From Gemmatimonadales bacterium (GTDB lineage: Bacteria > Gemmatimonadota > Gemmatimonadetes > Gemmatimonadales > GWC2-71-9): 64,000 bases of DNA. Under the pieces are notes generated by a model. That model was not told the origin of the DNA and made no database searches. It saw nothing but the letters and a program-made list of their open reading frames with translations. Position numbers and translations under genes: made by a program. The DNA lies in assembly GCA_044869265.1 (NCBI GenBank), contig JBIOXD010000048.1, forward strand, positions 16,002-80,001. The letters are read 5' to 3'. This document shows positions 2,535 to 48,860 of the stretch, piece by piece. The stretch's first letter is position 1, and each line of letters opens with the position of its first letter.

Positions 2535-3994
2535 GCGCCCGCGCGTTTGAGCAGGAACTCTGTGAAGAGGCGCACGCCGATCGCGGTAGGCCCCTTCGCG
2601 TGGCTCGCGCCTTCGCCCTCGAGATATGCAGTGCCGGCGATGTCGAGGTGCACCCACGGGAAGCCATCGACGAATTCCCGCAGGAACCAGGCGCCGGCGA
2701 TCGTGCCGGCGGCCCGGCCGCCGGAGTTCTTGACATCGGCGACGTCCGATTTCAGCAGGTCGCGGTAATCGTCCCACAGCGGCAGGGGCCAGCAACGCTC
2801 GCCGGCGCGCTCACCGGCGTCGCGCACTTCCGCGAGGAGCGCCTCGTCGTTGCCGAGCATCCCGATCGCGTGATGGCCCAGGGCAATGACCACCGCACCG
2901 GTGAGCGTGGCGGCGTCGATTGCGGCGGCCGGCTTATAGCGGCGCGCGTACGACAGCGCGTCACAGAGGATCAGCCGGCCCTCGGCGTCCGTATTGATGA
3001 TCTCGATCGTCTTGCCCATGTGACTCTTCACGACATCGCCAGGCTTGATCGCGGTGCCGGACGGGAGATTCTCGGTCGCGGGGATCAGGCCCACGACGTT
3101 GAGCTTCGGTTTCAGCCGCCCCAGGACCTCGAACGTGCCGAGGACGGCCGTCGCTCCCGACTTGTCGAACTTCATGTCTTCCATATTCTGGGCCGGCTTG
3201 ATCGAGATGCCGCCCGAATCGAAGGTGACGCCCTTGCCCACCAACACGACCGGCGCACCGGTACCTCCATGGTACTCCAGCACGATGAAGCGGGGTTCCT
3301 CCGCACTGCCCTGTGCCACGGCGAGGAGCGCGCCCATCCCTTCCTTAGTTATCTGCGCTTTATCGAGGATCGTGACTTCGAACCCATGGGTTGTTGCCAG
3401 CTTGCGGGCCTGCTCGGCGAGATAAGTGGGTGTGCACAAATTGCCCGGCTGCATCTGGAGATTTCGAGTGAAGAGGTATCCCTCGGCCATCGCGTCCCCG
3501 ATGCGCCGTCCCGCTTCCGCTTGACTCTTGTCGCGCTGGTCGACGACGAGCTCGACTGACTCGAGATCAGGCTTGGGATCCTCGGGCTGCTTCTTCAGCT
3601 CGGTGAATTGCCAGCCGCCCTGGGCCGCGCCTTCGATGGCGACCTGCGCCAACTCGGCGGCGCCGAGGCCGCCGCGGGCTTCCGCCGTAACGACCAACGA
3701 AAACGACTTGGTGCCCAGCGCTCGGGCGCGCTTGGCCGCGACGGCGCTCGCCCGCCGGATCGAGCTGCGCGTGATCTCGCCCGGCTTCCCTACCCCCACC
3801 AGGAGGATACGCTCGGGCCCCTGCTCCGACCCGTACACGAGCAGTGTCTCGTCCTTCTTTCCTTTGTAGTCACCCGACGCCACCGCGCGTTCGAGAGTCG
3901 CGTCCTGCAACGGCGCGAATCCTTGTGTCACGACGACTGCGAGAAGTGGGGTGGCGACGCTGAGGGGGGCCTTGGTCGAGATCGCCGACTTCAT
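2531..3994 (-). CDS. pepA: Leucyl aminopeptidase (M17 family)
   Basis: 487 aa. M17 signature [28 protein letters not shown], typical length. 4-nt overlap with icd upstream. Confidence 0.93.
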
Positions 3995-5232
3995 GCCAAA
4001 TGCTCGATGATCGCCTCGGCGAACGCGGACGTGGATACTTCGGTGGCTCCGGGCAGCTGACGCGCGAGATCGTACGTCACGCGCTGTGCCGAGATGGCGC
4101 CTTCGAGCCCGTGTACGATCGCGCGCGCCACGTCGTCCCAGCCGATTTCTTCGAACATCATGACACCCGACAGGATCACGCTGCTCGGATTGACCTTGTC
4201 CTGGCCGGCGTACTTGGGCGCGGTGCCGTGCGTGGCCTCGTATACCGCGTAGCCATCGCCGACGTTCCCGCCGGGAGCCAGCCCGAGGCCGCCGACCTGC
4301 GCCGCGGCCGCATCGGAGAGGTAATCGCCATTCAAGTTGGGAGCGGCGATGACGGAGTATTCATCGGGGCGCAGCACGAGCTGCTGGAACATGGCGTCGG
4401 CAATGCGGTCCTTAATCAACAGCTTCCCGACGTCCTCTTTGCGCTTCCCCCCATCGGCCTCCGTGACGGTCTGCTCGCTGAAGCGCTCTTTGGCGACTTC
4501 ATAGCCCCAGTCGCGGAAGCCACCCTCGGTGAACTTCATGATGTTCCCTTTGTGCACCAGCGTCACCGACGGTTTCTTGCGCTTGAGCGCGTACTGAATC
4601 GCTTTCACCACCAGCCGCTGCGACCCGAACTTGGACATCGGCTTGATGCCGATCGCGCTGCCGGGCCGGATCTTCGCGCTGAAGCGGCGCGAGAGAAACT
4701 CGATCACGGCTTCCGCTTCAGGACTCTCCGCCTTGTATTCGATACCGGCGTACACGTCTTCGATGTTTTCGCGGAAGATCACTACGTCGAGCTTGCGTGG
4801 CTCTTTGACGGGTGCGGGCACGCCGGTGAAGTAACGCACCGGGCGGATGCAGGCGTACAGGTCGAGGATTTGCCGCAGCGCGACGTTGAGTGAGCGGATC
4901 CCGCCGCCCACGGGAGTCGTCAGCGGGCCCTTGATCGCGACCCGATGCTCGCGAATGACGCCGAGCGTTTCCTCGGGCAGCCAGCTGCCGGTCTCCTTGA
5001 ACGATTTCTCCCCGGCGAGGACCTCGCGCCACACGACGCTGCGCCTGGCACCCGATGTTTTCGTGACGGCGGCGTCGAATACCTGGGCAGCGGCGCGCCA
5101 GATGTCGGGTCCCGTGCCGTCGCCTTCGATGAATGGGATGATGGGGTGGTCCGGAACGATCCAGTGGCCGTCGCGGAAATCGATTTTGGCGCCGACGGCT
5201 CCGCCCCGGCGACCTTCGACCTGGGTTGTCAT
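3991..5232 (-). CDS. icd: NADP-dependent isocitrate dehydrogenase
   Basis: 413 aa. N-terminal [46 protein letters not shown] are classical Icd motifs. Confidence 0.95.
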
Positions 5233-5269
5233 GGACCCATTCTACAACAAAAAGGCCCGCCTTTGTACA

Positions 5270-5342
5270 GGAGCAGGGAGCAGGGAGCGGAGAGCAGAAC
5301 CTGCTCCGTCCTCCATGCTCCCTGCCCACCGCTCCCTGCTCC
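5270..5342. repeat. Heptamer array hairpin: 4 x GGAGCAG-type units, AAC, then 6 x CTGCTCC-type units
   Basis: Read directly: GGAGCAG GGAGCAG GGAGCGG AGAGCAG aac CTGCTCC GTCCTCC ATGCTCC CTGCCCA CCGCTCC CTGCTCC. It fills the spacer between the beta-propeller gene stop (5346) and the icd start (5232). Confidence 0.9.
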
Positions 5343-8707: not shown

Positions 8708-9748
8708 TTACGGCGGTGGTGATTGACGGCTGAAACGCACCTCCAGCGTGCGCTGAGTGTTGACCTTGGCGCGCTTACCTCCGTAGCGATACGTGGTAAT
8801 CGCGATCAGCGAATCCTGAAGCGGAACCCCCGGCGCGATATTACGGAACCGGGTCAGAAAGGTCATCGAGCGAACATCCGTCAGTTCGGATCGCTCGGGC
8901 CGAGTGAGCGACGTTGCCGTGTAGCGGAGCTCGTAGGTAACGGGGTCGAGATAGGCCGAGCCCGCCATGTCCGCCGTGCCGATGCGCTTGGCCGGCTCGA
9001 AGTCGATGCGCACGAGCGCGTCTCCTCCGATCGTGTCGGCGCCCGCCAGCCGGAAGCAGTGATTGCTGATGAAGTTTGCGTCCCCGAGAACCTGCAGGTC
9101 GGCGCTGTGAATGACGAGCACATTCGCCGGATTCCCCCACGGTCCCCATGCTGGCTCGACAACTCGCCCGACCTGATATGGACGATCGTCGCTACTGGAG
9201 AAGCGCAGTTTCTGAACCTCCGGTTTTCCCGTGTCGCCGCGTTGATACACGGTGCGGTCGGACAGCTCGAGCGTGTACTGGAATGGATACGACTCGGCGA
9301 GCAGCTCGTAGCGGCGGGCGTTCTCCTGCAATTGACCAAAGACCGCGAGCAAGGCCGCGTCGCTAGAATCGGGTGGACCCGGGTGCGTGCAGGGCAACGC
9401 CGCGATGGTGACCGGCGGCAGCTCGATCGCGAGCCGGCGCAAAGCAACGTCAAGGGTCGTCAGGCCGTCGTTCCGGACCACAATCTGCGTGTCGAGCGGA
9501 GCGTAGCCGATTTGACGGATGCTGACGAGATACGAGCCTGCGCTCGTCCCTGCGAATGCGAACGTCCCGCGAGCATCGGTGAACTGCTTGTCCCTGTGGG
9601 GATACAGCGTGACGATCGTGTAGCCGAGGGGCTGACCGGTCTCGGCGCTCGTCACGGTCCCGCGCAGGCTGCGCTCGCTCGGACCCTGCGTGAACGCGAC
9701 CGAGGGCACCTGCAGGAGCAGCCACCAAAACGAATGTCGAGTATCCAA
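8708..9748 (-). CDS. Carboxypeptidase-regulatory-like (CarboxypepD_reg) domain protein
   Basis: 346 aa. N-terminal LRGTVTSAETGQPLGYTIVTLYPHRDKQFTDARGTFAFAGTSAGSYLVSIRQIGYAP is the typical CarboxypepD_reg beta-sandwich pattern. The annotated start is a TTG, so the start is uncertain. Confidence 0.6.
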   Translation of the reverse strand: MDTRHSFWWLLLQVPSVAFTQGPSERSLRGTVTSAETGQPLGYTIVTLYPHRDKQFTDARGTFAFAGTSAGSYLVSIRQIGYAPLDTQIVVRNDGLTTLDVALRRLAIELPPVTIAALPCTHPGPPDSSDAALLAVFGQLQENARRYELLAESYPFQYTLELSDRTVYQRGDTGKPEVQKLRFSSSDDRPYQVGRVVEPAWGPWGNPANVLVIHSADLQVLGDANFISNHCFRLAGADTIGGDALVRIDFEPAKRIGTADMAGSAYLDPVTYELRYTATSLTRPERSELTDVRSMTFLTRFRNIAPGVPLQDSLIAITTYRYGGKRAKVNTQRTLEVRFSRQSPPP

Positions 9749-9803
9749 TGTCGAACGCCGAATTTCGAAATTCTACATTCGAAATTCGACAATCGACATT
9801 CGT
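9731..9803. promoter_or_regulatory. AT-rich palindromic block at the 5' end of the 8708..9748 gene (candidate operator/promoter)
   Basis: A perfect 14-nt palindrome GAATTTCGAAATTC is flanked by the 10-nt inverted repeat CGAATGTCGA ... TCGACATTCG and repeated TTCGAAATTCGA / AATGTCGA words. It is strikingly AT-rich for this genome. Confidence 0.4.
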
Positions 9804-9845
9804 TTTTGCAATACCTGGGGCGTCAAAGGAGACAAGAGCCAGTGG

Positions 9846-33101: not shown

Positions 33102-35215
33102 ACCGTTGGAAGGTTGGAAGGTTGGACGGTTGGAAAGTTGGCATGTTGGCGCTGCTCTCACTGTCCAACATTCCAACAGTCCAGCTGTCGTCACAGGAGC
33201 CCTTCCCTTCCACGCCTCCGACGGCTTCGCAGCTCCGGCCACTCCAGTTTCCGCCGTTCCGAGAGCTGGCGCTCCCCAACGGCATCACGTTCATGCTGAT
33301 CGAGAATCACGAGCAGCCCACGCTGTCGGTCAGTCTGAGCTTCCGAGCCGGCTCGTACTACGATCCTTCGGGCAAGGAGGGGCTAACGGCCTTGGTCGCG
33401 GAGCTGCTGACGAAAGGGACGCCGACGCGCGACGCGGACCAGATCGCGGGGACGATCGAAGGGGTGGGCGGCAGCATCAGCGCGAGCTCGGGCGACGACT
33501 TTCTCACGATCAGCACCGATGTGCTCAGTGACCAGGCAGAGCTGGCGTTTACACTGCTCGGCGAGGTCGCGCGGCGCGCGACATTCCCCGAGCAGGAGCT
33601 GGAGCTCGCGCGGACGCGTTACCTCTCGGTCCTTGCGGTGGAGCTCTCGCAGCCGGCGAGCGTTGCCGGGCGCGCGTTCCAGCGTGAGCTCTATGGGCGT
33701 AACCCCTACGGCCGGAATACGACGGCCGAGTCGTTCAAGGCGATCAAGCGCGACGACATCGTCAGCTTCGCGAGCCGCCGCATTCGTCCGGGCGGCGCGC
33801 TGCTGGTGATCGCGGGCGACATCCGCCTGGCGCGAGCGCAAGAGCTGGCGAATCAGGCATTCGGGACCTGGAGCGGGACGGCCGGCGCGGCCCCGACAGC
33901 GCCCGCCGCTCCGGTGAAACCGAGCACCGACATTCTGCTCGTCCATCGGCCCGGCTCGGTGCAGTCGAACATCGTGATGGGCAATACGACGTTCCTGCCC
34001 ACCGACACGGGCTACTACCCTGCGCGCGTCGCCACGCACGTGCTGGGTGGCGGCTCGGATTCACGGCTGTTCTCAATCCTGCGCGAACAGAAAAGCTGGA
34101 CCTACGGCTCTTATGCCGCGCTGCGCCGCTACCGCGGACTCGGCCACTGGAACGCGACGTTTGAAGGCCGCACCGAGGTGACCGACAGCGCCCTCGTCGA
34201 GCTGTTGCACCAGATCGACCGGATCCGCACGGAGGTGATGCCGGACAGCGAGCTGAGTGCCGCGAAGGGATTCCTCGTCGGTTCGTTCCCGCTCACTATC
34301 GAGACGCCGCGCCAGGTGGCGCAGGTGGTCACGACGGCGAAGCTGCTCGGGCTCGGCACCGACTATCTGCAGCGCTATCGCGCCCGTCTGAACAACGTCA
34401 CACCGGCGCGCGCGCGGGCCGCCGCCCAACGCACCTATCGGCGCAGCGCCCTCACGATCGTCGTCGTGGGCGACGCGAAAGCACTCTACGAGAAACTCAA
34501 GAAGATCGCGCCCGTGCGGCTGGTGGACATCGAGGGCAAGGCGCTGGACCCCGCGGACCTCGATCCGAAAGGGGCGGCAGTCGCGCTCGATCGGAGCCAG
34601 ATCGTCGCTCATCGGGACAGCATGCAGGCGCTGATCCAAGGCACAGTGGCCGGGAGTCAGGTCTCGAGCATCGACCTCGCGGGCGACTCGATCGTCTACA
34701 CGGAATCGATGGCTATCCCGATGGCGGGCCTGCAGCAACGGTCCGTGGTGGTGCTCAATGCGGATTTGACGATGCGCCGCGCCGAGCAAACCAGTACGGT
34801 TCAGGGGCAAAAGACCACGACCCAGCTCGACTACACCGCCGCGCGCGTGAAGGGCACGGCGATGGCCCCGCAACCGAGCGGCACCCCGAGATCCATAACG
34901 GTCGATACGGCGCTTGCCCCGGGCACGATCGACGACAACGCGCTGTCGCTCGTGCTGCCGGCGCTGCCGCTCGTCGAGGGAAAGACGTTCAACCTCAACG
35001 TCTTTTCGTCCGGCGAGGGAATCACGAAGGTCGTGACTGTCAAGGTGGCGGGGATCGAGCAGGTGCAAGTGCCCGCCGGCACCTTCCCCGCGTTTCGGCT
35101 CGACCTCTCCGGGATGCAATTGCCCGTCGTGATGCATGTGACCGAGCAGGCGCCGCGTCGACTGATTCGGATTGCTCCTACCGGCGCGCCGGTGGTATTC
35201 GAACTCGTGAAATAG
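33098..35215 (+). CDS. M16 family peptidase-like protein (no HxxEH motif) with C-terminal extra domain
   Basis: 705 aa. M16 fold-like N- and C-lobes (LPNGITFMLIENHEQP..., no HxxEH motif) plus a ~230-aa C-terminal beta-rich extension. The start could be 33098 or ATG 33143, and the N-terminus is encoded by the octamer array. Confidence 0.75.
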   Translation: MNRWKVGRLDGWKVGMLALLSLSNIPTVQLSSQEPFPSTPPTASQLRPLQFPPFRELALPNGITFMLIENHEQPTLSVSLSFRAGSYYDPSGKEGLTALVAELLTKGTPTRDADQIAGTIEGVGGSISASSGDDFLTISTDVLSDQAELAFTLLGEVARRATFPEQELELARTRYLSVLAVELSQPASVAGRAFQRELYGRNPYGRNTTAESFKAIKRDDIVSFASRRIRPGGALLVIAGDIRLARAQELANQAFGTWSGTAGAAPTAPAAPVKPSTDILLVHRPGSVQSNIVMGNTTFLPTDTGYYPARVATHVLGGGSDSRLFSILREQKSWTYGSYAALRRYRGLGHWNATFEGRTEVTDSALVELLHQIDRIRTEVMPDSELSAAKGFLVGSFPLTIETPRQVAQVVTTAKLLGLGTDYLQRYRARLNNVTPARARAAAQRTYRRSALTIVVVGDAKALYEKLKKIAPVRLVDIEGKALDPADLDPKGAAVALDRSQIVAHRDSMQALIQGTVAGSQVSSIDLAGDSIVYTESMAIPMAGLQQRSVVVLNADLTMRRAEQTSTVQGQKTTTQLDYTAARVKGTAMAPQPSGTPRSITVDTALAPGTIDDNALSLVLPALPLVEGKTFNLNVFSSGEGITKVVTVKVAGIEQVQVPAGTFPAFRLDLSGMQLPVVMHVTEQAPRRLIRIAPTGAPVVFELVK
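33105..33152 (+). repeat. 6 x 8-nt tandem array (GTTGGAAG) at the 5' end of the second M16 gene
   Basis: GTTGGAAG GTTGGAAG GTTGGACG GTTGGAAA GTTGGCAT GTTGGCGC, starting 7 nt after the ATG (33098) that overlaps the upstream stop codon. Confidence 0.9.
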
Positions 35216-35227
35216 GAGGAACCGATA

Positions 35228-36679
35228 ATGCGGCGGTCGGCCGGTCAAGCTGAAACAGCGGCGGTCAACCTGACAAGGCGCCGGTCGGGCGCACTGGTGC
35301 TCGCGGTCCTCCTCGCGGCGGGCTGTGCGTCCGGTGGCGCCCGAACCACAGGCAGCACGACGCCCGCTCCGGCGACGCCGGCCGCCCAGGACACGAGTGG
35401 CGGCATCGGTCCCCAGTATCCGTCCACGTATCAGCGACATCCCAACCCGCCGGTGCTGATCCGGAACGCGACGATCATGACTGCGACCGGTCAGGAGATT
35501 CAAGGCGGCTCGATTCTGCTCCGCGACGGCCGGATCGTGTCCGTGGGCACCACCGTGGAAGCCCCGAGCGACGCGACGGTGGTCGACGGGACGGGCAAGT
35601 GGGTGACGCCAGGAGTGATCGATACACACTCGCACATCGGTGTGTATGCCGCGCCAGGCACGTTCGCGGAGTCGGACGGCAACGAGGCGACGAGGCCGGT
35701 GACGGCGGAGGTGTGGGCGGAGCATTCGTTCTGGCCGCAGGATCCCCAGATTCCGCTCGCCATCGCCGGCGGCGTGACGACGATTCAGGCGCTCCCCGGC
35801 TCGGCGAACCTGATCGGCGGGCGGAGCGCTGTGTTGAAGCTGATTCCGGGGCGCTCGGTTCAGGAAATGAAGTTCCCCGGCGCACACTACGGTCTGAAGA
35901 TGGCGTGTGGCGAGAACCCCAAGCGCGTCTACGGCCAGCGCGGCGGTCCCTCGACCCGCATGGGCAACATGGCGGGTTATCGTGAGGCCTTTATCCAGGC
36001 GCAGACCTATCGGCGCCGCTGGGACAAGTGGAACAAGGATCGCAGCGGTGATCCACCCGACCGCAATCTCCGCAATGAAACGCTGGCTGAAGTGCTCCGC
36101 GGCAACATCTACGTCCAGAACCACTGCTACCGCGCCGACGAGATGGTCCAGATGCTGGACCTGGCGCGCGAGTTCGGCTTCAAGATCCGCTCGTTCCACC
36201 ACGCGGTGGAGGCGTACAAGATCGCCGACGTGCTCGCGCGCGACAGCGCAGCCGCCTCGATCTGGGCCGACTGGTGGGGCTTCAAGGAAGAAGCGATGGA
36301 CGGCATCTACGAGAACGCCGCGCTGCTTCAGCAGGCGGGCGCCCGCGCGATCATCCATTCAGACGATGCGGGCGGCATCCAGCGCCTGAATCAGGAGGCG
36401 GCAAAGGCCATGTATCACGGCCGCCGCGCCGGCATCCCGGTGACGCGCGATCAGGCGCTGCGTTGGTTCACCGCGAATCCGGCCTGGGCCTTGGGTCTCG
36501 ATTCGATCGTGGGGACCCTCGAGGCCGGCAAGATGGCGGACGTCGTCGTGTGGTCTGCCGATCCCCTGTCCGTGTATGCCCGCGCGCTGCAGGTCTACAA
36601 CGACGGATGGCTCATCTACGATCGCAACGATCCGGCGCGCCAACCCAAAACCGATTTCACCTTGGGGCAGGAGCCATGA
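35228..36679 (+). CDS. Amidohydrolase family lipoprotein (imidazolonepropionase/prolidase-like)
   Basis: AGGAGGA lies 8 nt upstream of the ATG. Lipobox LLAAGCAS. GKWVTPGVIDTHSHIGV (HxH) and later HHAVEAY, IIHSDD. Confidence 0.82.
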   Translation: MRRSAGQAETAAVNLTRRRSGALVLAVLLAAGCASGGARTTGSTTPAPATPAAQDTSGGIGPQYPSTYQRHPNPPVLIRNATIMTATGQEIQGGSILLRDGRIVSVGTTVEAPSDATVVDGTGKWVTPGVIDTHSHIGVYAAPGTFAESDGNEATRPVTAEVWAEHSFWPQDPQIPLAIAGGVTTIQALPGSANLIGGRSAVLKLIPGRSVQEMKFPGAHYGLKMACGENPKRVYGQRGGPSTRMGNMAGYREAFIQAQTYRRRWDKWNKDRSGDPPDRNLRNETLAEVLRGNIYVQNHCYRADEMVQMLDLAREFGFKIRSFHHAVEAYKIADVLARDSAAASIWADWWGFKEEAMDGIYENAALLQQAGARAIIHSDDAGGIQRLNQEAAKAMYHGRRAGIPVTRDQALRWFTANPAWALGLDSIVGTLEAGKMADVVVWSADPLSVYARALQVYNDGWLIYDRNDPARQPKTDFTLGQEP

Positions 36680-38533: not shown

Positions 38534-38560
38534 AGGGCCGGAACTCTAGTCTGGGCTTAC

Positions 38561-38646
38561 GGTTCGGTCAAGGGCGGTCGAGAGCGGTCGACGCCGGTCG
38601 ACTTCGGTCACCGCCTTCGACCGCCATTGCCTGCCTTGGACCGCCC
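38561..38646. repeat. Decamer array hairpin (NNGCGGTCGA units, then the inverted units)
   Basis: In 10-nt phase: GTTCGGTCAA GGGCGGTCGA GAGCGGTCGA CGCCGGTCGA CTTCGGTCAC then CGCCTTCGAC CGCCATTGCC TGCCTTGGAC CGCCC. It lies between the rng stop and the rplU start. Confidence 0.85.
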
Positions 38647-40269
38647 TTATGCCACCGCATACTGCTCCGTGACGTCTCTTCCAGCCGGCCTTGCCATCAT
38701 GCGGAACTCATCGAGCCGCATCATTGGATCGTCCCGCACTTCGAGCTCGAGGCCGGTCTGCTTCTCCAGTTGCCGCAGGAAGTTAGGCTCCTGTTCCACG
38801 AGGTACAGCGCGACTTCGGGATGGAGTCGGACCGACAACTGCCGTTCCTTATGATCCGCGCCCGCCCGCTTGAGCGAGCGCTCCATGCGGCGCACCACGA
38901 CCTCAGGCCGGAACACCCGGCCCGTACCGGTGCAGGTCGGGCATTCGGTCGTCATGGACTGCCACAGTGACGGCCGGACACGCTGGCGCGTCATCTCGAC
39001 CAGGCCCAGCTCCGAAACGGCGAACGCGCGGGTACGCGCGCGGTCGCGTCCGAGGTGCGTGCGCAGCTCCTGGAGCACCTTGTCACGGTTCGATTTCGTT
39101 TCCATGTCGATGAAATCGACGACGATGATGCCGCCGATGTCGCGTAGACGAATCTGGCGTGCGACTTCCCGCGCCGCCTCGATATTGGTGCGAAGGATCG
39201 TGCTTTCGGGATCCCGCTTGCCCGTATAACGACCCGTATTCACATCGATCGAGATGAGCGCCTCGGTCGGCTGGATGATCAGGTACCCGCCGGTCGGGAG
39301 CTCGACGCGCTGCTTGAACAGGTTCCGAATCTCGGCCTCGACGTCATACGCGTCGAACAGCGGAGCTTCGTCCCGGTAGAGCTTCACCTTGGGGAGCAGC
39401 TCGGGATCGATTTGTTTCAGATACTGCTCGACCTCGTTGTAGAGCAGCTTCGAGTCGACGAGGAGAAGATCGACCTTGTCGGACAACAAGTCTCGAACGA
39501 TTCCTCTGGTGAGGCTGGTCTCGCGCTGCACCAGCTGAGGGGCGCGGCCGGACGACGCTTTGCGCTTGATCTTTTTCCACAGTCCCAGCAGGTGGTCGAT
39601 CTCGCGCTTACAACTCGCCTCGGTGAGGTCGTCGGCCACCGTACGAATGATCCATCCGCCTTGATCGGCCGGCACCAGCTTCGAGACCATGTCCCGCAGC
39701 TTGGCGCGCTGGTCGCGAGCTTCGATCTTGCGGGAGACGCCGACTTTCGACGCGAACGGCATGTAGACCAGAAACCGGCCGGCGAGCGAGACCTGCGCGG
39801 TGACCCGCGGCCCCTTGGTGCCGATCGCTTCCTTGATGACTTGGACGAGCTTTGTCTGACCGCGCTTCAGCTCATCGCCGATGTTCGGGGCTGGGCGCCG
39901 GCGTGAGCCGGAGGGGCGACGGCGATTCGCCACCGCCTGCGTGGCCGCTGGAGCTCCCCCTCCGCCGTTCCCGTCACCATTACCGTTGCCGTTCTCGTCC
40001 GCGTCGTCCGCCTCGCGGTCGTCCGGATCTTCGTCTTCGTCAGACTCGATTAGATCGGAGGCATGGAGGAAGGCACTTTTTTCCGCGCCGATGTCGACGA
40101 AGGCCGCCTGGATACCGGGCAGGACGGCTTCGACCTTGCCGACGTAGATGTCACCCACCGAACGGCGGGAATCAGGACGGTCGACCAGGAGTTCAACAAG
40201 GCGGTCGTCCTCGAGAATGGCCACGCGGGTTTCCCGCGGGCTTCCGGAGATCAAAATCTCGCGCTTCAA
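38647..40269 (-). CDS. rng: Ribonuclease G/E family endoribonuclease
   Basis: 540 aa, TTG start. S1-domain N-terminus (VGDIYVGKVEAVLPGIQAAFVDIG), catalytic region (TEALISIDVNTG, DIGGIIVVDFIDM). Classical rng-rplU-rpmA context. Confidence 0.9.
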   Translation of the reverse strand: MKREILISGSPRETRVAILEDDRLVELLVDRPDSRRSVGDIYVGKVEAVLPGIQAAFVDIGAEKSAFLHASDLIESDEDEDPDDREADDADENGNGNGDGNGGGGAPAATQAVANRRRPSGSRRRPAPNIGDELKRGQTKLVQVIKEAIGTKGPRVTAQVSLAGRFLVYMPFASKVGVSRKIEARDQRAKLRDMVSKLVPADQGGWIIRTVADDLTEASCKREIDHLLGLWKKIKRKASSGRAPQLVQRETSLTRGIVRDLLSDKVDLLLVDSKLLYNEVEQYLKQIDPELLPKVKLYRDEAPLFDAYDVEAEIRNLFKQRVELPTGGYLIIQPTEALISIDVNTGRYTGKRDPESTILRTNIEAAREVARQIRLRDIGGIIVVDFIDMETKSNRDKVLQELRTHLGRDRARTRAFAVSELGLVEMTRQRVRPSLWQSMTTECPTCTGTGRVFRPEVVVRRMERSLKRAGADHKERQLSVRLHPEVALYLVEQEPNFLRQLEKQTGLELEVRDDPMMRLDEFRMMARPAGRDVTEQYAVA

Positions 40270-40447
40270 AGCAGTTACCCTCGCGACCCTCAGGGAAGCA
40301 CCCGGAGGGAAGCCTGTGGTTATCCCAGCAAAAGTCCAACGTGCCCGGTGGAACGGGCAGGGAGATGCGATTGGGTAGGCGGCTGAGAGACGCCAGAAGC
40401 CAATTCATGAGGGCAAAGCTAGGACGAGGCCGTACTTAGGTCAACAC

Positions 40448-40511
40448 GAGGGCGGTCGAGGGCGGTTGAGGGCGGGCGAAGGCGGTCAAAGCGAAGGCGG
40501 TCCGTGGCGGG
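40448..40511. repeat. Decamer tandem array GAGGGCGGTC (forward orientation)
   Basis: GAGGGCGGTC GAGGGCGGTT GAGGGCGGGC GAAGGCGGTC aaagc GAAGGCGGTC CGTGGCGGG, in the rng upstream region, ~60 nt before the four-helix-bundle gene. Confidence 0.9.
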
Positions 40512-40573
40512 AAAATGATACAGGTGGCACCAGAATGGTACGGGCTAGCGGGAAAGGCATGTGATAATAGGGA

Positions 40574-40968
40574 ATGCGCCCGTACGAGCGATTTGTCGCA
40601 TGGAAGGAGTGCCATGCCTGGCGCTACGAGTTTACAAGGCTACGGAGAGCTTTCCAAAGCACGAGTTGTACGGATTGACATCGCAGGCGCGGCGCGCTGC
40701 GGTCTCTGCGGCGGTGAACATTGTGGAGGGTTCGTCAAGAAGAGGAAGCGCCGAGTTCAGACGCTTTCTCGACATTTCGCTTGGTTCACTTTCTGAGGTC
40801 GGGTACATCCTACGACTCGCCCGGGAGTTGGCGCTTCTGACGCCAGCGCAGTGGTCCGAGCTAGACGACCATCAGCAACGGGCTCATTACCTCACCTGGA
40901 AACTCTACGAATCGATGGCGAAGCCCCGGACCGCCCTCGTCCGCCCTCGCTCGCCCTCGACCGCCTAG
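40574..40968 (+). pseudogene. Four-helix-bundle protein gene (23S rRNA intervening-sequence protein family) with an apparent 1-nt frameshift near codon 15
   Basis: ATG 40574 gives MRPYERFVAWKECHA (typical family start). The rest, LALRVYKATESFPKHELYGLTSQARRAAVSAAVNIVEGSSRRGSAEFRRFLDISLGSLSEV..., is in another frame (ORF 40561..40968). The frame switch is at ~40617-40622. Confidence 0.65.
40929..40965. repeat. Decamer tandem array GACCGCCCTC (inverted orientation of the 40448 array)
   Basis: GACCGCCCTC GTCCGCCCTC GCTCGCCCTC GACCGCC. It is the reverse complement of the GAGGGCGGTC family and forms the last ~13 codons of the four-helix-bundle ORF. Confidence 0.9.
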
Positions 40969-42191
40969 TCTATCAATCCTCCCAGCAGCTGCCGTGCAAT
41001 CACAATGCGCTGAATCTCGCTCGTTCCCTCGCCGATCTCGCAGATCTTGGCGTCCCGCATCATGCGCTCGACCGGGTATTCGGTCGTGTACCCATAGCCG
41101 CCATGCAGCTGGACGGCCTTGGTCGTGGCCCGCATGCACAGCTCCGACGCGTACAGTTTGGCCATCGCCGCTTCCTTCTTGAACGGGTGGCCTTGCTGCT
41201 TCAGCCACGCGGCGTGGTACACGAGCTGTTTGGCGGCTTCGACCTCGGTCGCCATGTCGGCGAGCGCGAAATGCACACCCTGGAAACTCGCGATCGCGCG
41301 CCCAAACTGCTTTCTCGTCGTCGTGTAGGTGAGGCACTCCTCCAACGCCCCCTCGGCGAGTCCGAGCGCGAGGGCCGCGATGCCGATCCGCCCGCCGTCG
41401 AGCGTATGCAGGAACTGCCGGAACCCGTTGTTCACGGTGCCCAGCACGTTCTCCTTGGGCACGATCGCGTCCTGAAAGATCAACTCGCGCGTATCCGAGG
41501 CCCGCCAGCCGAGCTTGTCTTCCTTCTTCCCGGAGTGGACGCCCCGATTCTTCGGTAGCTCACTGTCCGGCGCGTGGCCGATCCCGACGCGCTTCGTCTC
41601 TTCGAGGTCGCACGTATCCTTCGTGACCACGAACGCGGTGATGCCGTGAGTGCGTTTGGCGGACGGATCGGTTCGCGCGGTCACGCAGAAGATCTCGCCG
41701 ACTCCGGCGTGGGTGATGAAGATCTTGGAGCCGTTCAGGACGTAGTGATCGCCGCGGTCCACTGCGGTCGTTTTGGTGCCACCGGCGTCCGATCCGGCGC
41801 CGGGCTCCGTGAGGCCGAAGCCGCCGAGCACTTTGCCGGTCGCGAGCAACGGCACGAAGCGACGTTTCTGATCGTCTGTGCCGAAATCGATGATCGGCGA
41901 CGTGCCCAGCGTGGTGTGGGCACTCACGGTGATCGCGTGACTCGCGTCGACTTTTGCGAGCTCGTGGATGACCGTGATGTACGACAAATAGTCCATCCCT
42001 GATCCGCCCAGCTGCTCGGGCCATGGAATCCCGAACAAGCCGAGATCCGCCATTTGCTTGATGTTTTCCCAGGGGAACCGGCTTTCGAGATCGAACTGAC
42101 GGGCAGCGGGTTTGACGACGGTGCGGGCGAAATCGCGCACCATCTCGCGGACTTGCAGGTGGTGGTCTGAGAAGTAGAGCGAGTCGTGCAT
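40965..42191 (-). CDS. Acyl-CoA dehydrogenase
   Basis: 408 aa. [12 protein letters not shown], typical C-terminal YEGTSEIQ-like [19 protein letters not shown]. Confidence 0.92.
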
Positions 42192-47620: not shown

Positions 47621-48369
47621 AGCGCGCCCTCGCAGGGCTGCTGGCGCTCGGGCTGATCGGCTGCAAGCCTCCGGAAAACGCGGGACCGCCGCGCTCGACG
47701 CTCGTGGTGGGACTCGACGTGAGCGGCTCGTTTCGCCAGAGCGGGCATTTCGATCGGAGCGTGGAATTCGCGGCGCTCTACATCTACGGCCATCTCAACG
47801 GCCTGGGTGGGCTACGGCAGCCGACGGACGTTTTTATCGGATCCATGGGGGGGCAACAGATCAACCAGCCGAAGGCGTTTCATCCCATCCAGGATCTCTA
47901 CGGCAAATCGATAGAGGAGATCGAGCGCGATCTCAGGTCATGGTTCCCCGAGACCGATCCGCTCACCGACTTCAACACGTTCTTTCACCGGGTGTCGGTC
48001 CACGTCAGACGGCAGAACCTGGTGCTCTCGCCGCTCAGCATCGTTATGTTCTCCGACGGCGAGCCCGATTTCCCCGGTGCCGGCCGCATCTCTTCCGAGG
48101 ATCGATATCGCCGAATCGATCTCACACCGCTCGAGTACCTCTCCCGCAGTGTGACGGTGCGGTTGCTCTACGCGACCCCGCGCGTCGCCCAGCTCTGGGA
48201 GCAGCAGGTTCCGCGCAAGCGGGTGCGCCTCTGGACCCAGGACTGGCAGGTCATGCAAGGCTGGCAACGCCACGTCGTGGCAGGCCGGCCACCCGAGCGT
48301 CAGGACTCGCTGTGGAGCTGGATGTCGGAAATCGTCGACTTCCGGGTGAGACGCGGGAAGATTCTCTAA
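47617..48369 (+). CDS. VWA-like (MIDAS DxSxS) lipoprotein
   Basis: ATG 47617 overlaps the upstream TGA. Lipobox LALGLIGC. LVVGLDVSGSFRQ (DxSxS) and later IVMFSDGEPD, typical of von Willebrand A domains. Confidence 0.6.
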   Translation: MKRALAGLLALGLIGCKPPENAGPPRSTLVVGLDVSGSFRQSGHFDRSVEFAALYIYGHLNGLGGLRQPTDVFIGSMGGQQINQPKAFHPIQDLYGKSIEEIERDLRSWFPETDPLTDFNTFFHRVSVHVRRQNLVLSPLSIVMFSDGEPDFPGAGRISSEDRYRRIDLTPLEYLSRSVTVRLLYATPRVAQLWEQQVPRKRVRLWTQDWQVMQGWQRHVVAGRPPERQDSLWSWMSEIVDFRVRRGKIL

Positions 48370-48374
48370 AAAGA

Positions 48375-48423
48375 CCTCGGGCCTCGGGCCTGGGGCCTGG
48401 TCCAGCCCCCAGGCCCCAGGCCC
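48375..48423. repeat. Heptamer array hairpin (CCTCGGG/CCTGGGG units then CCCCAGG units); perfect 15-bp stem
   Basis: CCTCGGG CCTCGGG CCTGGGG CCTGG tccagccc CCAGGCCCCAGGCCC. Arms 48386-48400 and 48409-48423 are perfectly complementary. It lies between convergent genes. There is no U-tract. Confidence 0.85.
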
Positions 48424-48425
48424 CT

Positions 48426-48860
48426 TCAACAGTATTGGTCAAACGCCGCCGTGAGATCGGCGGCGATATCGCGCGCGTGGCGACCCTCGATGTTGCGGCG
48501 CTCCAGCATGAACACGAGCCGCCCATCCTTGAAGAGGGCGATCTGGGGCGAGGATGGTTGGTAGCCTGTGAAGTAGCTCCGCGCGCGCCCCGTCGCATCG
48601 GCATCCTGTCCTGCAAATACCGTGACGAGCCGGGCCGGCCGGCGCGCATGTTGAATCGCGAGCGCAGCGGCGGGCCGGGCGTTGCGCGCGGCGCAGCCGC
48701 AGACCGAGTTGACGACGACGAGTGTCGGCGCGCGCTCGCTCGCGAGCACGGCATCCACGTCGGCGGGAGTGCGGAGCTCCTCAAAGCCCAGGCGAGTCAG
48801 CTCCTCGCGCATCGGGCGAACCAGCTCTGGATCGTACATGGGAACGTTCAAATCGCGCAT
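48426..48860 (-). CDS. Bacilliredoxin-like (YphP/YqiW, BrxA/B family) thiol-disulfide protein
   Basis: 144 aa. VVNSVCGCAA (CGC redox motif) and overall YphP/YqiW-like layout. Confidence 0.65.
   Translation of the reverse strand: MRDLNVPMYDPELVRPMREELTRLGFEELRTPADVDAVLASERAPTLVVVNSVCGCAARNARPAAALAIQHARRPARLVTVFAGQDADATGRARSYFTGYQPSSPQIALFKDGRLVFMLERRNIEGRHARDIAADLTAAFDQYC

Follow-up and report, generated by a model that had tools for sequence, protein, structure and literature searches.

In a 64,000-nucleotide stretch of a Gemmatimonadales bacterium (contig JBIOXD010000048.1, positions 16,002 to 80,001; hereafter the window), a 524-bp element separates the gene for an acyl-CoA dehydrogenase (acd) from that for an RNase of the E/G family (rng). 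Two facing arrays of a short tandem repeat, which we call arms, enclose a single gene for a four-helix-bundle (4HB) protein of the type encoded in intervening sequences (IVSs) of 23S rRNA, and among close relatives the whole is present or absent as a single unit. We think it probable that this element (40445-40968) is a decaying chromosomal, non-rRNA member of the class of 23S rRNA IVSs that contain an open reading frame (ORF), built as a 4HB cassette with terminal inverted tandem arrays. A first reading of the window, made from its sequence only, had proposed a dead mobile or IVS-like element outside rRNA. Clean empty sites, a build that recurs across phyla, the parallel with the IVS of Coxiella and a confirmed frameshift all bear this proposal out.

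An inserted unit between acd and rng

The element and its immediate surroundings comprise the following features.

40445-40968, + strand: whole inserted unit, 524 bp, made up of the left array, a leader with a promoter-like box, the frameshifted 4HB gene and the right array; limits good to about +/-4 nt
40447-40502, + strand: left (5') arm, a G-rich decamer array of four GAGGGCGGTC units, then AAAGC, then GAAGGCGGTC
40531-40539, + strand: leader motif CAGAATGGT, conserved in Gemmatimonadales 4HB elements with a consensus of about GAAATGGT, roughly 22 nt 5' of the -10-like box (leader alignment of 34 loci)
40560-40568, + strand: extended -10-like box TGTGATAAT, 5 nt before the ATG at 40574
40574-40618, + strand: first 15 codons of the 4HB gene (MRPYERFVAWKECHA), frame 1, ATG at 40574
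40618-40968, + strand: rest of the 4HB gene (LALRVYKATESFPKHELYGLTSQ...STA and stop), after a -1 shift; the final 13 codons come from the right array
40929-40965, + strand: right (3') arm, a C-rich decamer array of period 10 with 3.7 copies of GACCGCCCTC (Tandem Repeats Finder)
40965-40968: CTAG, in which the stop codon of the 4HB gene (TAG, + strand, 40966-40968) overlaps that of acd (TAG, - strand, 40967-40965); the two genes are convergent
40965-42191, - strand: acd, whose 3' end meets the element
40416-40444, - strand: inferred rng promoter with -35 TTGACC (40444-40439), a 17-nt spacer and -10 TAGCTT (40421-40416), directly abutting the element and conserved in about 20 relatives
38647-40269, - strand: rng, RNase E/G family, 540 aa (PF10150, E 2e-100; TIGR00757, E 5e-148)

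We fetched 80 loci around rng orthologs and located the acd, rng, rplU and 4HB genes in each. In about 16 Gemmatimonadales genomes (L081-L093, L099, L133 and L157; RNase G 84-92% identical) the acd-rng junction is empty: acd ends 180-200 nt before rng, and neither a 4HB gene nor a hairpin lies between them. Here GATAGA is followed directly by TTGACCTAAGT (that is, GATAGA, then TTGACC), with GATAGATTGACC as the clean form, and in ...CTGATAGAT TGA CCTAAGT... the TGA stop codon of acd falls inside the -35 box of the TTGACC-17 nt-TAGCTT promoter of rng. On its minus strand the window instead reads GATAGA-C-TAG, then GCGGTCGAGGG (GCGGTC...), the antisense 4HB gene and CCGCCCTCGTG (...CCCTCGTG), and only then TTGACCTAAGT; the stop codon of acd is supplied by the element. 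Alignment of the window with the empty sites thus shows that both arrays and the gene are one 524-bp insertion (40445-40968).

Even closer empty alleles were found in contigs of other public runs (X22, X23 and X41), which skip from 40457 to 40984 (about 526 nt) within flanks that are 96-98% identical to the window, and which therefore reveal a presence/absence polymorphism among close relatives. One further relative, L085, retains a 23-nt footprint, CTAAGCGGTCGCCCGCCCTTTAG, at the acd-rng site. Filled versions of this site occur in L001 (4HB 80% identical), L094 (59%) and both L101 and L128 (about 70%). The window and L001 pair GGCGGTCGAG with CTCGACCGCC, and L101 and L128 pair GGCGGTGGAG with CTCCACCGCC: elements at this site have changed in concert, mirrored across both arms. 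Terminal inverted repeats, together with a filled/empty polymorphism that includes a clean empty site, are hallmarks of transposable elements and of miniature inverted-repeat transposable elements (MITEs).

Tandem Repeats Finder places the left array at 40447-40487, with a period of 10 and 4.1 copies of CGAGGGCGGT; the fifth unit, GAAGGCGGTC, stands at 40493-40502. Positions 40451-40487 and 40929-40965, spaced 441 nt apart, are 86% complementary over 37 nt, in agreement with the facing, nearly reverse-complementary decamer arrays that the sequence-only reading had described. With 23 occurrences in the window, 7 of them within the two arrays, the motif GARGGCGG exceeds its expected number of 11.5 +/- 3.1. 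A stem of about 37 bp enclosing only the 4HB ORF had also been anticipated, and folding gave such a long-range stem in both the minimum-free-energy and the centroid structures of either strand (-239.8 kcal/mol, z -3.45 for the plus strand; -217.2 kcal/mol, z -2.78 for the minus strand); none of 100 shuffled sequences folded as well as the element. Terminal inverted repeats that form a long stem around the remainder of the element are a hallmark of IVSs. At its gathering thresholds Rfam has no family at the element, its only match in the window being one tRNA, and PADLOC found no match to a defence system. A consensus scan for a hairpin followed by a U-tract reported no intrinsic terminator at either arm; the sequence 3' of the right arm is TAGTCTATC, and that 3' of the left arm on the other strand is GTGTTGACC.

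The 4HB gene is the sole gene between the arms, and its assignment to the 23S-IVS-type family holds. With the two frames joined it scores 102.5 bits against PF05635 (cut-off 33.8; E 1.9e-29) and 97.9 bits against TIGR02436 (cut-off 24; E 3.8e-28). The joined protein also matches PDB 2GSC (E 4.4e-20), the only solved relative and a pentameric four-helix bundle, and by this homology we infer the same fold and a pentameric ring for the window protein. As for the helix motif G..R...S...N..E quoted in PMC3936711, YGLTSQARRAAVSAAVNIVEG has R-x4-S-x3-N-x2-E at the quoted spacing.

The need for a 1-nt frame correction, also suspected at the outset, was confirmed. Residues 15-115 map to 40615-40917 in the other frame (tblastn), and one nucleotide is deleted between 40618 and 40619, where the window reads GCC-TGG and the in-frame ortholog L001 reads GCG TTG G(CG). 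Contigs of four independent soil metagenome runs match the window over 40300-41100 with 0 differences and 0 gaps (in X4 in pieces, with gaps near both arrays); because the four assemblies agree, the frameshift is real at the consensus level. No slippery heptamer is found at the GCC-TGG shift site, and the only long ORF in the second frame begins 5' of the likely transcription start. The intact reading frame expected of a functional PF05635/TIGR02436 member is absent from the window copy, which is most likely a family member by descent and a pseudogene whose arms are still intact. The window comes from a soil bacterium, and the close relatives of its genes all belong to Gemmatimonadales metagenome-assembled genomes (MAGs).

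Since rng and acd both lie on the minus strand, the 4HB gene is antisense to local transcription. Most Gemmatimonadales homologs have a TAnnnT box 5-9 nt 5' of the start codon, and rplU is arranged likewise. With a -10-like box just before its ATG, the 4HB mRNA is probably leaderless, starting within the element 3' of the left arm and so lacking that arm. Boxes of this type, 5-9 nt before start codons, stand at rplU (38543-38571), at the 4HB gene (40560-40576), at a minus-strand gene starting at 5232 (5226-5262) and in relatives, which suggests that leaderless mRNAs are common in this lineage. The leader motif of about GAAATGGT keeps a fixed distance of roughly 22 nt from the -10-like box in the leaders of L001-L034 and of the window; as a sigma-70 -35 box it is ruled out by this spacing, which should be 17 nt. 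The inferred rng promoter, for its part, scores below the threshold of a consensus promoter scan.

Arrays with and without a gene

To see how general this build is, we fetched 80 loci encoding 4HB relatives and scored the best ungapped inverted repeat between the upstream region (200-350 nt) and the region around the stop codon, with regions shifted by 1.4 or 2.3 kb (n = 270) as controls. The score reached at least 15 in 60 of 75 loci and in 2 of the 270 controls, and its median was 22 for arms scored with their own partner and 8 for arms scored with the partners of other loci. An inverted pair of short-tandem-repeat arrays is present at nearly every locus, in Gemmatimonadota, Acidobacteriota, Bacteroidota, Verrucomicrobiota, Planctomycetota, Chloroflexota, Cyanobacteriota, Cloacimonadota and Patescibacteria. 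The repeat unit is specific to the locus and matches between the arms within it (GGTGGAGGTT, GGTAGAGGTC, GGGGAGGTT, GGCGGCGAGGG, AGTAGCG, AGAAGCC, GGCAATT and AGGGGCT, for example), with a period of 7-10 and up to 20. The paired-array build is thus the rule for PF05635 4HB genes in about nine phyla. We found no description of PF05635 genes enclosed by inverted tandem arrays as a general build in the literature, our coverage of which is incomplete, so that an earlier description is possible.

Over 68 4HB loci purines predominate in the 5' arm (G 46%, A 25%, T 16%, C 13.5%) and the opposite arrangement is rare; as the arrays are inverted, the purine-rich arm comes first on both strands. This polarity prompted a telomerase-like model in which each end would grow outward by repeats independently of the other; we did not adopt it because unit variants are partly mirrored between the arms of L005. 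Such mirroring is a better fit to fold-back copying or to arm-to-arm conversion. A systematic search for flanking direct repeats over the 4HB loci gave nothing consistent: most loci have none of at least 8 bp, the exceptions being L010 (21 bp) and L059 (at least 11 bp). In L010 the repeat, TCTTCAGGGCGAAGCGCTGAC, lies at 2856-2876 and 3395-3415, consists of the last part of the upstream gene, stop codon included, and flanks the 4HB element.

Other copies are damaged to different degrees. L035 has a frameshift comparable to that of the window, L036 has lost the C-terminal third of the 4HB gene and L060 carries an internal deletion in it, all with well-preserved arms; L028 has lost most of the left arm and the leader. 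From the intact cassette through these copies to the footprint of L085 there is a decay series, in which the gene decays and the arms persist. The pattern agrees with the view of the authors of the Coxiella study that the RNA or stem outweighs the protein (PMC4990558).

Tandem arrays also occur without a 4HB gene. At least five gene-less hairpins made of tandem 7-10-mers lie in the window, with z between -3 and -5.

5270-5342: hairpin of GGAGCAG units
9727-9806: hairpin of CGAAATT/TCGACAT units
33105-33183: hairpin of GTTGGAAG units
38565-38648, - strand: hairpin of GGGCGGTC units, of the same decamer family as the element, between the rng stop codon and the rplU -35 box (-48.8 kcal/mol, z -2.95)
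48375-48424: hairpin of CCTCGGG units

Those whose flanks we examined fill the exact space from a stop codon to the next promoter (its -35 box) or between two convergent stop codons, as at 48375-48424, where TAA at 48369 and TCA at 48426 (TGA on the minus strand) border the hairpin. Among relatives the rng-rplU junction is either empty (GC, then TTGACC, with a 37-nt spacer) or filled by differing tandem-repeat hairpins, with units such as GGGAGCA, GTGCGTC, GGTGGAGG, GGGATGC and GTGCGCG, and also by a plain palindrome and a long type of 20-mers. Across genomes (window 38534-38646; loci L081-L130) at least eight unrelated tandem-repeat or plain palindromes occupy this one junction. Filled sites keep an immediate stop codon at the left junction, often exactly GCTTGA, and CTTGAC at the right; a short TTGA(C) duplication is the simplest explanation, and the junction looks like an insertion hot spot with such a duplication. 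In two more distant relatives (L141 and L156) gene-less heptamer hairpins occupy the acd-rng junction itself.

A 25-nt pattern of the window's decamer family was scanned against genome contigs, a 15-nt pattern having given mostly chance matches in GC-rich genomes. More than 112 loci matched the 25-nt pattern, most of them in MAGs of Gemmatimonadales, where one MAG often has several; 22 are gene-less hairpins, one has a partner 640 nt away, and the rest are unpaired, some of them inside or at the ends of coding regions. Other contigs of similar depth in the window's metagenomes carry the decamer array as well. Decamer arrays are therefore a dispersed family in three settings: solo, as hairpins, and flanking a 4HB gene.

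In L300/L304 and L288/L307, from Gemmatimonadales MAGs, unpaired GGCGGTCGAG arrays are located within coding regions or at their ends. Read in one orientation they would encode G/R-rich peptides and in the other P/S/T/A-rich ones, which resemble the ..RPRSPSTA tail contributed to the window 4HB protein by the right arm. An array with a 20-nt period (..CAGCGGCGGTCAAC..) and without an inverted partner lies at 35240-35286, at the very start of an amidohydrolase ORF (35228-36679). In L084 and L089 the same unit type builds the long rng-rplU hairpins, and the 4HB element of L035 has arms of a related unit.

The neighbouring genes encode RNase G, ribosomal protein L21, the acyl-CoA dehydrogenase, a helicase, a prolyl oligopeptidase, amidohydrolases and an M16 peptidase. 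The 5' untranslated region of rng (40270-40410, - strand, about 140 nt) is conserved in relatives (CATGCATTGG..CTCTCAGCCGCCT..CCAATCGA..TTGCTGGGATAACCA..), has no Rfam match at the gathering score and could act as the autoregulatory leader of an RNase E/G gene. Residues ~76-127 of RNase G (39889-40044, - strand), in the N-terminal part of the protein, form an acidic, Gly/Asn-rich low-complexity insert (DEDEDPDDREADDADENGNGNGDGNGGGG...RRRPSGSRRRP).

Possible tolerance of the element, and competing explanations

If the element belongs to the IVS class, its insertion could be tolerated in the following way. RNA reading through from acd on the minus strand would cross the whole element and would be the only type of RNA here that contains both arms. 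In this RNA the arms would pair over about 37-50 bp, giving a duplex of the type that RNase III typically processes, and the enzyme would cut it as it cuts the stem of the Coxiella 23S rRNA. Cleavage would then separate the acd message from the rng transcription unit and leave the insertion tolerable or harmless. In empty-site relatives the acd-rng junction is indeed spanned by metatranscriptome contigs; these carry no strand information and may derive from DNA, and are thus weak evidence for read-through.

Several observations weigh against our interpretation. In the metatranscriptome runs, coverage came from empty-site relatives only and none from the element. Arm mismatches over 68 loci (83 sense-wobble, 77 antisense-wobble and 119 transversions) have no G-U bias for either strand and so give no sign that pairing is selected at the level of RNA rather than DNA; maintenance of the pairing in DNA, as terminal inverted repeats or through arm-to-arm conversion, is equally conceivable. 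At the acd-rng site no target duplication is visible, with CTAG on one side and TTGA on the other; the CTGA of L094 and the CTAA of L085 may be TTGA copies that have decayed. Elsewhere the flanking duplications follow no consistent pattern, with about 4-7 bp at the rng-rplU junction, 21 bp in L010 and none detectable in most loci. No transposase or reverse transcriptase is encoded in the element or among the neighbouring genes tested; an enzyme acting in trans is possible. Arrays of the decamer family are common elsewhere with no partner, and none of the loci found has a 4HB gene within 1 kb. Finally, the patchy distribution at acd-rng fits an old insertion with repeated loss, or recombinational exchange of alleles, as well as it fits recent movement.

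It is tempting to extend the IVS interpretation to a single widespread family of small palindromic elements, formed by PF05635 4HB genes and their inverted arms. The rRNA IVSs would be a special case of it, and the short tandemly repeated repetitive (STRR) sequences of cyanobacteria, the paired sites of Geobacter and the Gemmatimonadales hairpins would be non-autonomous derivatives. The pentamer would recognise its own unit and help to spread or maintain the arrays, possibly with a polymerase or a reverse transcriptase, like the Avd protein of diversity-generating retroelements (DGRs). We regard this extension as rather unlikely; it could explain why the purine-rich arm comes first on both strands and why the flanking duplications vary in length.

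A related explanation draws on repetitive extragenic palindromic (REP) sequences, their hairpin doublets (REPINs) and the REP-associated tyrosine transposases (RAYTs). In it the 4HB protein would bind its own unit in DNA or RNA form and promote or direct the spread or upkeep of the arrays, the gene-bearing copy being the master and the hairpins and solo arrays its non-autonomous offspring. The arrays do occur in the same three settings (inverted around a gene, as gene-less hairpins, and solo at several loci per genome), one hairpin of the same decamer family stands 1.8 kb from the element, and the roughly 4-5 units per arm sit beside a solved homolog, 2GSC, that is pentameric. Avd, a relative of PF05635, is a cofactor that binds nucleic acid and reverse transcriptase, and the filling of one junction by hairpins of different units across genomes, with GCTTGA kept, suggests a TTGA(C) target duplication. 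Yet the protein, at about 115-130 aa, has no known catalytic motif; the dispersed decamer arrays have no 4HB gene nearby; the 4HB arms and the gene-less hairpins of the same MAG share their unit in only 1-2 of about 6 comparable pairs (judged by eye); and the arms outlast decayed copies of the gene, so they do not need it beside them. We consider this explanation doubtful as well, to about the same degree as the extension above.

Alternatively, the 4HB gene may have landed in the loop of a pre-existing intergenic tandem-repeat hairpin, a terminator or insulator, so that the arrays belong to the host site. Gene-less hairpins of this sort are common at stop-codon/promoter junctions in the window and its relatives, and 23S IVSs are located at the tips of rRNA hairpins (PMC4990558). 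But the empty acd-rng sites of close relatives all lack a hairpin, arrays and gene come and go together, the association holds across phyla with the arms right around the ORF, and we found no orthologous pair that shares the arms with the gene present in one and missing from the other; this makes a host-site origin distinctly improbable. Less probable again, and by our estimate very much so, is that the arrays are independent, slippage-born members of a dispersed simple-repeat family, placed on either side of the gene by chance and without a function in common. In favour of this, Gemmatimonadales often carry the decamer array unpaired, also inside coding regions, and similar dispersed tandem hepta-/octamers are known from Geobacter and Beggiatoaceae (PMC2700814, PMC4679880). 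The sequence-only reading had named three findings that would count against it: arrays common elsewhere without a partner, which is indeed the case, and a stem that fails to fold or reads that correct the frameshift, whereas the stem does fold and the reads leave the frameshift in place. Chance flanking is at odds with the frequency of paired inverted arrays around 4HB genes compared with shifted controls, with arms that match their own partner far better than those of other loci, with unit changes mirrored in both arms of orthologous elements, and with the joint absence of both arrays from empty sites.

We give next to no credence to the idea that the stem acts as a regulatory RNA structure in the leader of rng, or that the frameshift reflects mis-sequencing or, in a gene that still works, programmed frameshifting. 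RNase E/G genes often have structured, autoregulated leaders, and the element does adjoin rng in a protein-coding setting, as the sequence-only reading had stated; rng, however, is read from the minus strand, divergently from the 4HB gene, and has the arrays upstream of its promoter. This promoter is conserved and stands between rng and the arrays; transcription of rng therefore begins downstream of them and leaves them outside the leader, so the suggestion of a structured RNA module in the rng leader is to be dropped. Most relatives lack the arrays altogether. Against an error or a working gene stand the four assemblies that confirm the deletion, a shift site without a slippery heptamer and an ortholog, L001, that is in frame.

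Relation to known elements and significance

The 23S rRNA IVSs of Leptospira, Coxiella burnetii and the Xanthomonas type (S23p) encode the same protein family (PF05635/TIGR02436, pentamer 2GSC), are of similar size (about 430-760 nt in the literature, 524 nt here) and, like the window element, hold the ORF inside terminal inverted repeats that form a long stem, with tandem short repeats in the stem of Coxiella. There, a 28-bp terminal stem has 3-4 tandem GACAGAT units just upstream of the S23p ORF; RNase III excises the IVS, the ORF is decaying while the stem is kept, and the authors rate the RNA as more relevant than the protein (PMC4990558). The idea that IVSs are mobile elements is credited in that paper to Ralph & McClelland (1993). 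The rRNA IVSs lie in helix 9, 25 or 45 of the 23S rRNA gene, whereas the window element sits between acd and rng, bounded by a stop codon and a -35 box; it also differs in its decamer unit and in having some 70 nt of leader that include a promoter-like box, and its excision by RNase III is putative.

With REP/REPIN sequences and RAYTs the element shares a single small gene between inverted short repeats that are also dispersed as singlets and intergenic hairpin doublets, a hallmark seen here in the hairpin at 38565-38648 and in the several loci per related MAG. The RAYT, however, is an HUH/Y1 (IS200/IS605-like) transposase, whereas the only gene of the window element encodes a PF05635 four-helix bundle, and a REP is a single palindrome of about 20-35 nt, whereas the 4HB arms are tandem arrays of 7-10-nt units. 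The STRR heptamers of cyanobacteria, the paired octa-/heptanucleotide sites of Geobacter metallireducens and the TAACTGA repeats of Beggiatoaceae resemble the arms, with 3-6 copies of a 7-10-nt unit at many intergenic, and sometimes intragenic, loci. In G. metallireducens these 'global regulator sites' comprise 24+21+8 opposite-strand pairs of tandem octa-/heptamers at variable distance and 49 solo four-heptamer elements (PMC2700814). In the literature searched, such repeats are read as protein-binding or regulatory sites, without a link to PF05635 genes; in one Nostocaceae locus (L062) we find a 4HB gene between STRR-like AGGGGCT arrays.

Like the window element, MITEs and the Correia, ERIC and BOX elements are small, non-coding or nearly non-coding insertions at gene boundaries, with terminal inverted repeats, strain polymorphism and possible co-transcription and processing. 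The window element departs from them in carrying a gene that is not a transposase, in terminal tandem arrays whose unit varies by copy, and in the lack of any fixed target duplication found. Avd is a four-helix-bundle pentamer homologous to PF05635 (PMC10053308). It accompanies a reverse transcriptase, and none is encoded near the window locus, where template and variable repeats were not searched for. Avd genes that stand between inverted tandem arrays are not known to us. PF05635 appears among the array- or cas-associated genes of two CRISPR surveys (PMC3936711, PMC10910872); flanking tandem arrays of the present kind may have been mistaken for mini-CRISPR arrays and so have earned the family its 'CRISPR-associated' label, a caution for annotation in general, since such arrays may pass for mini-CRISPR arrays.

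Since the early 1990s it has been an open question where 23S rRNA IVSs come from, how mobile they are and what their conserved ORF does; this ORF belongs to a very large 'hypothetical' family related to the Avd of DGRs. The window locus and its relatives give clean filled and empty alleles of a 4HB cassette outside rRNA, a build of arrays plus gene that spans phyla and whose arms change together, and a decay series that runs from intact through frameshifted and internally deleted copies to a footprint. They also link 4HB cassettes to the unexplained short tandem-repeat arrays and hairpins at stop-codon/promoter junctions of Gemmatimonadales. The locus itself appears to be of a known kind in a new setting, and the wider pattern of cassettes and dispersed arrays appears to be under-described. 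From this perspective, the IVSs of rRNA appear as one habitat within a wider class of cassettes.

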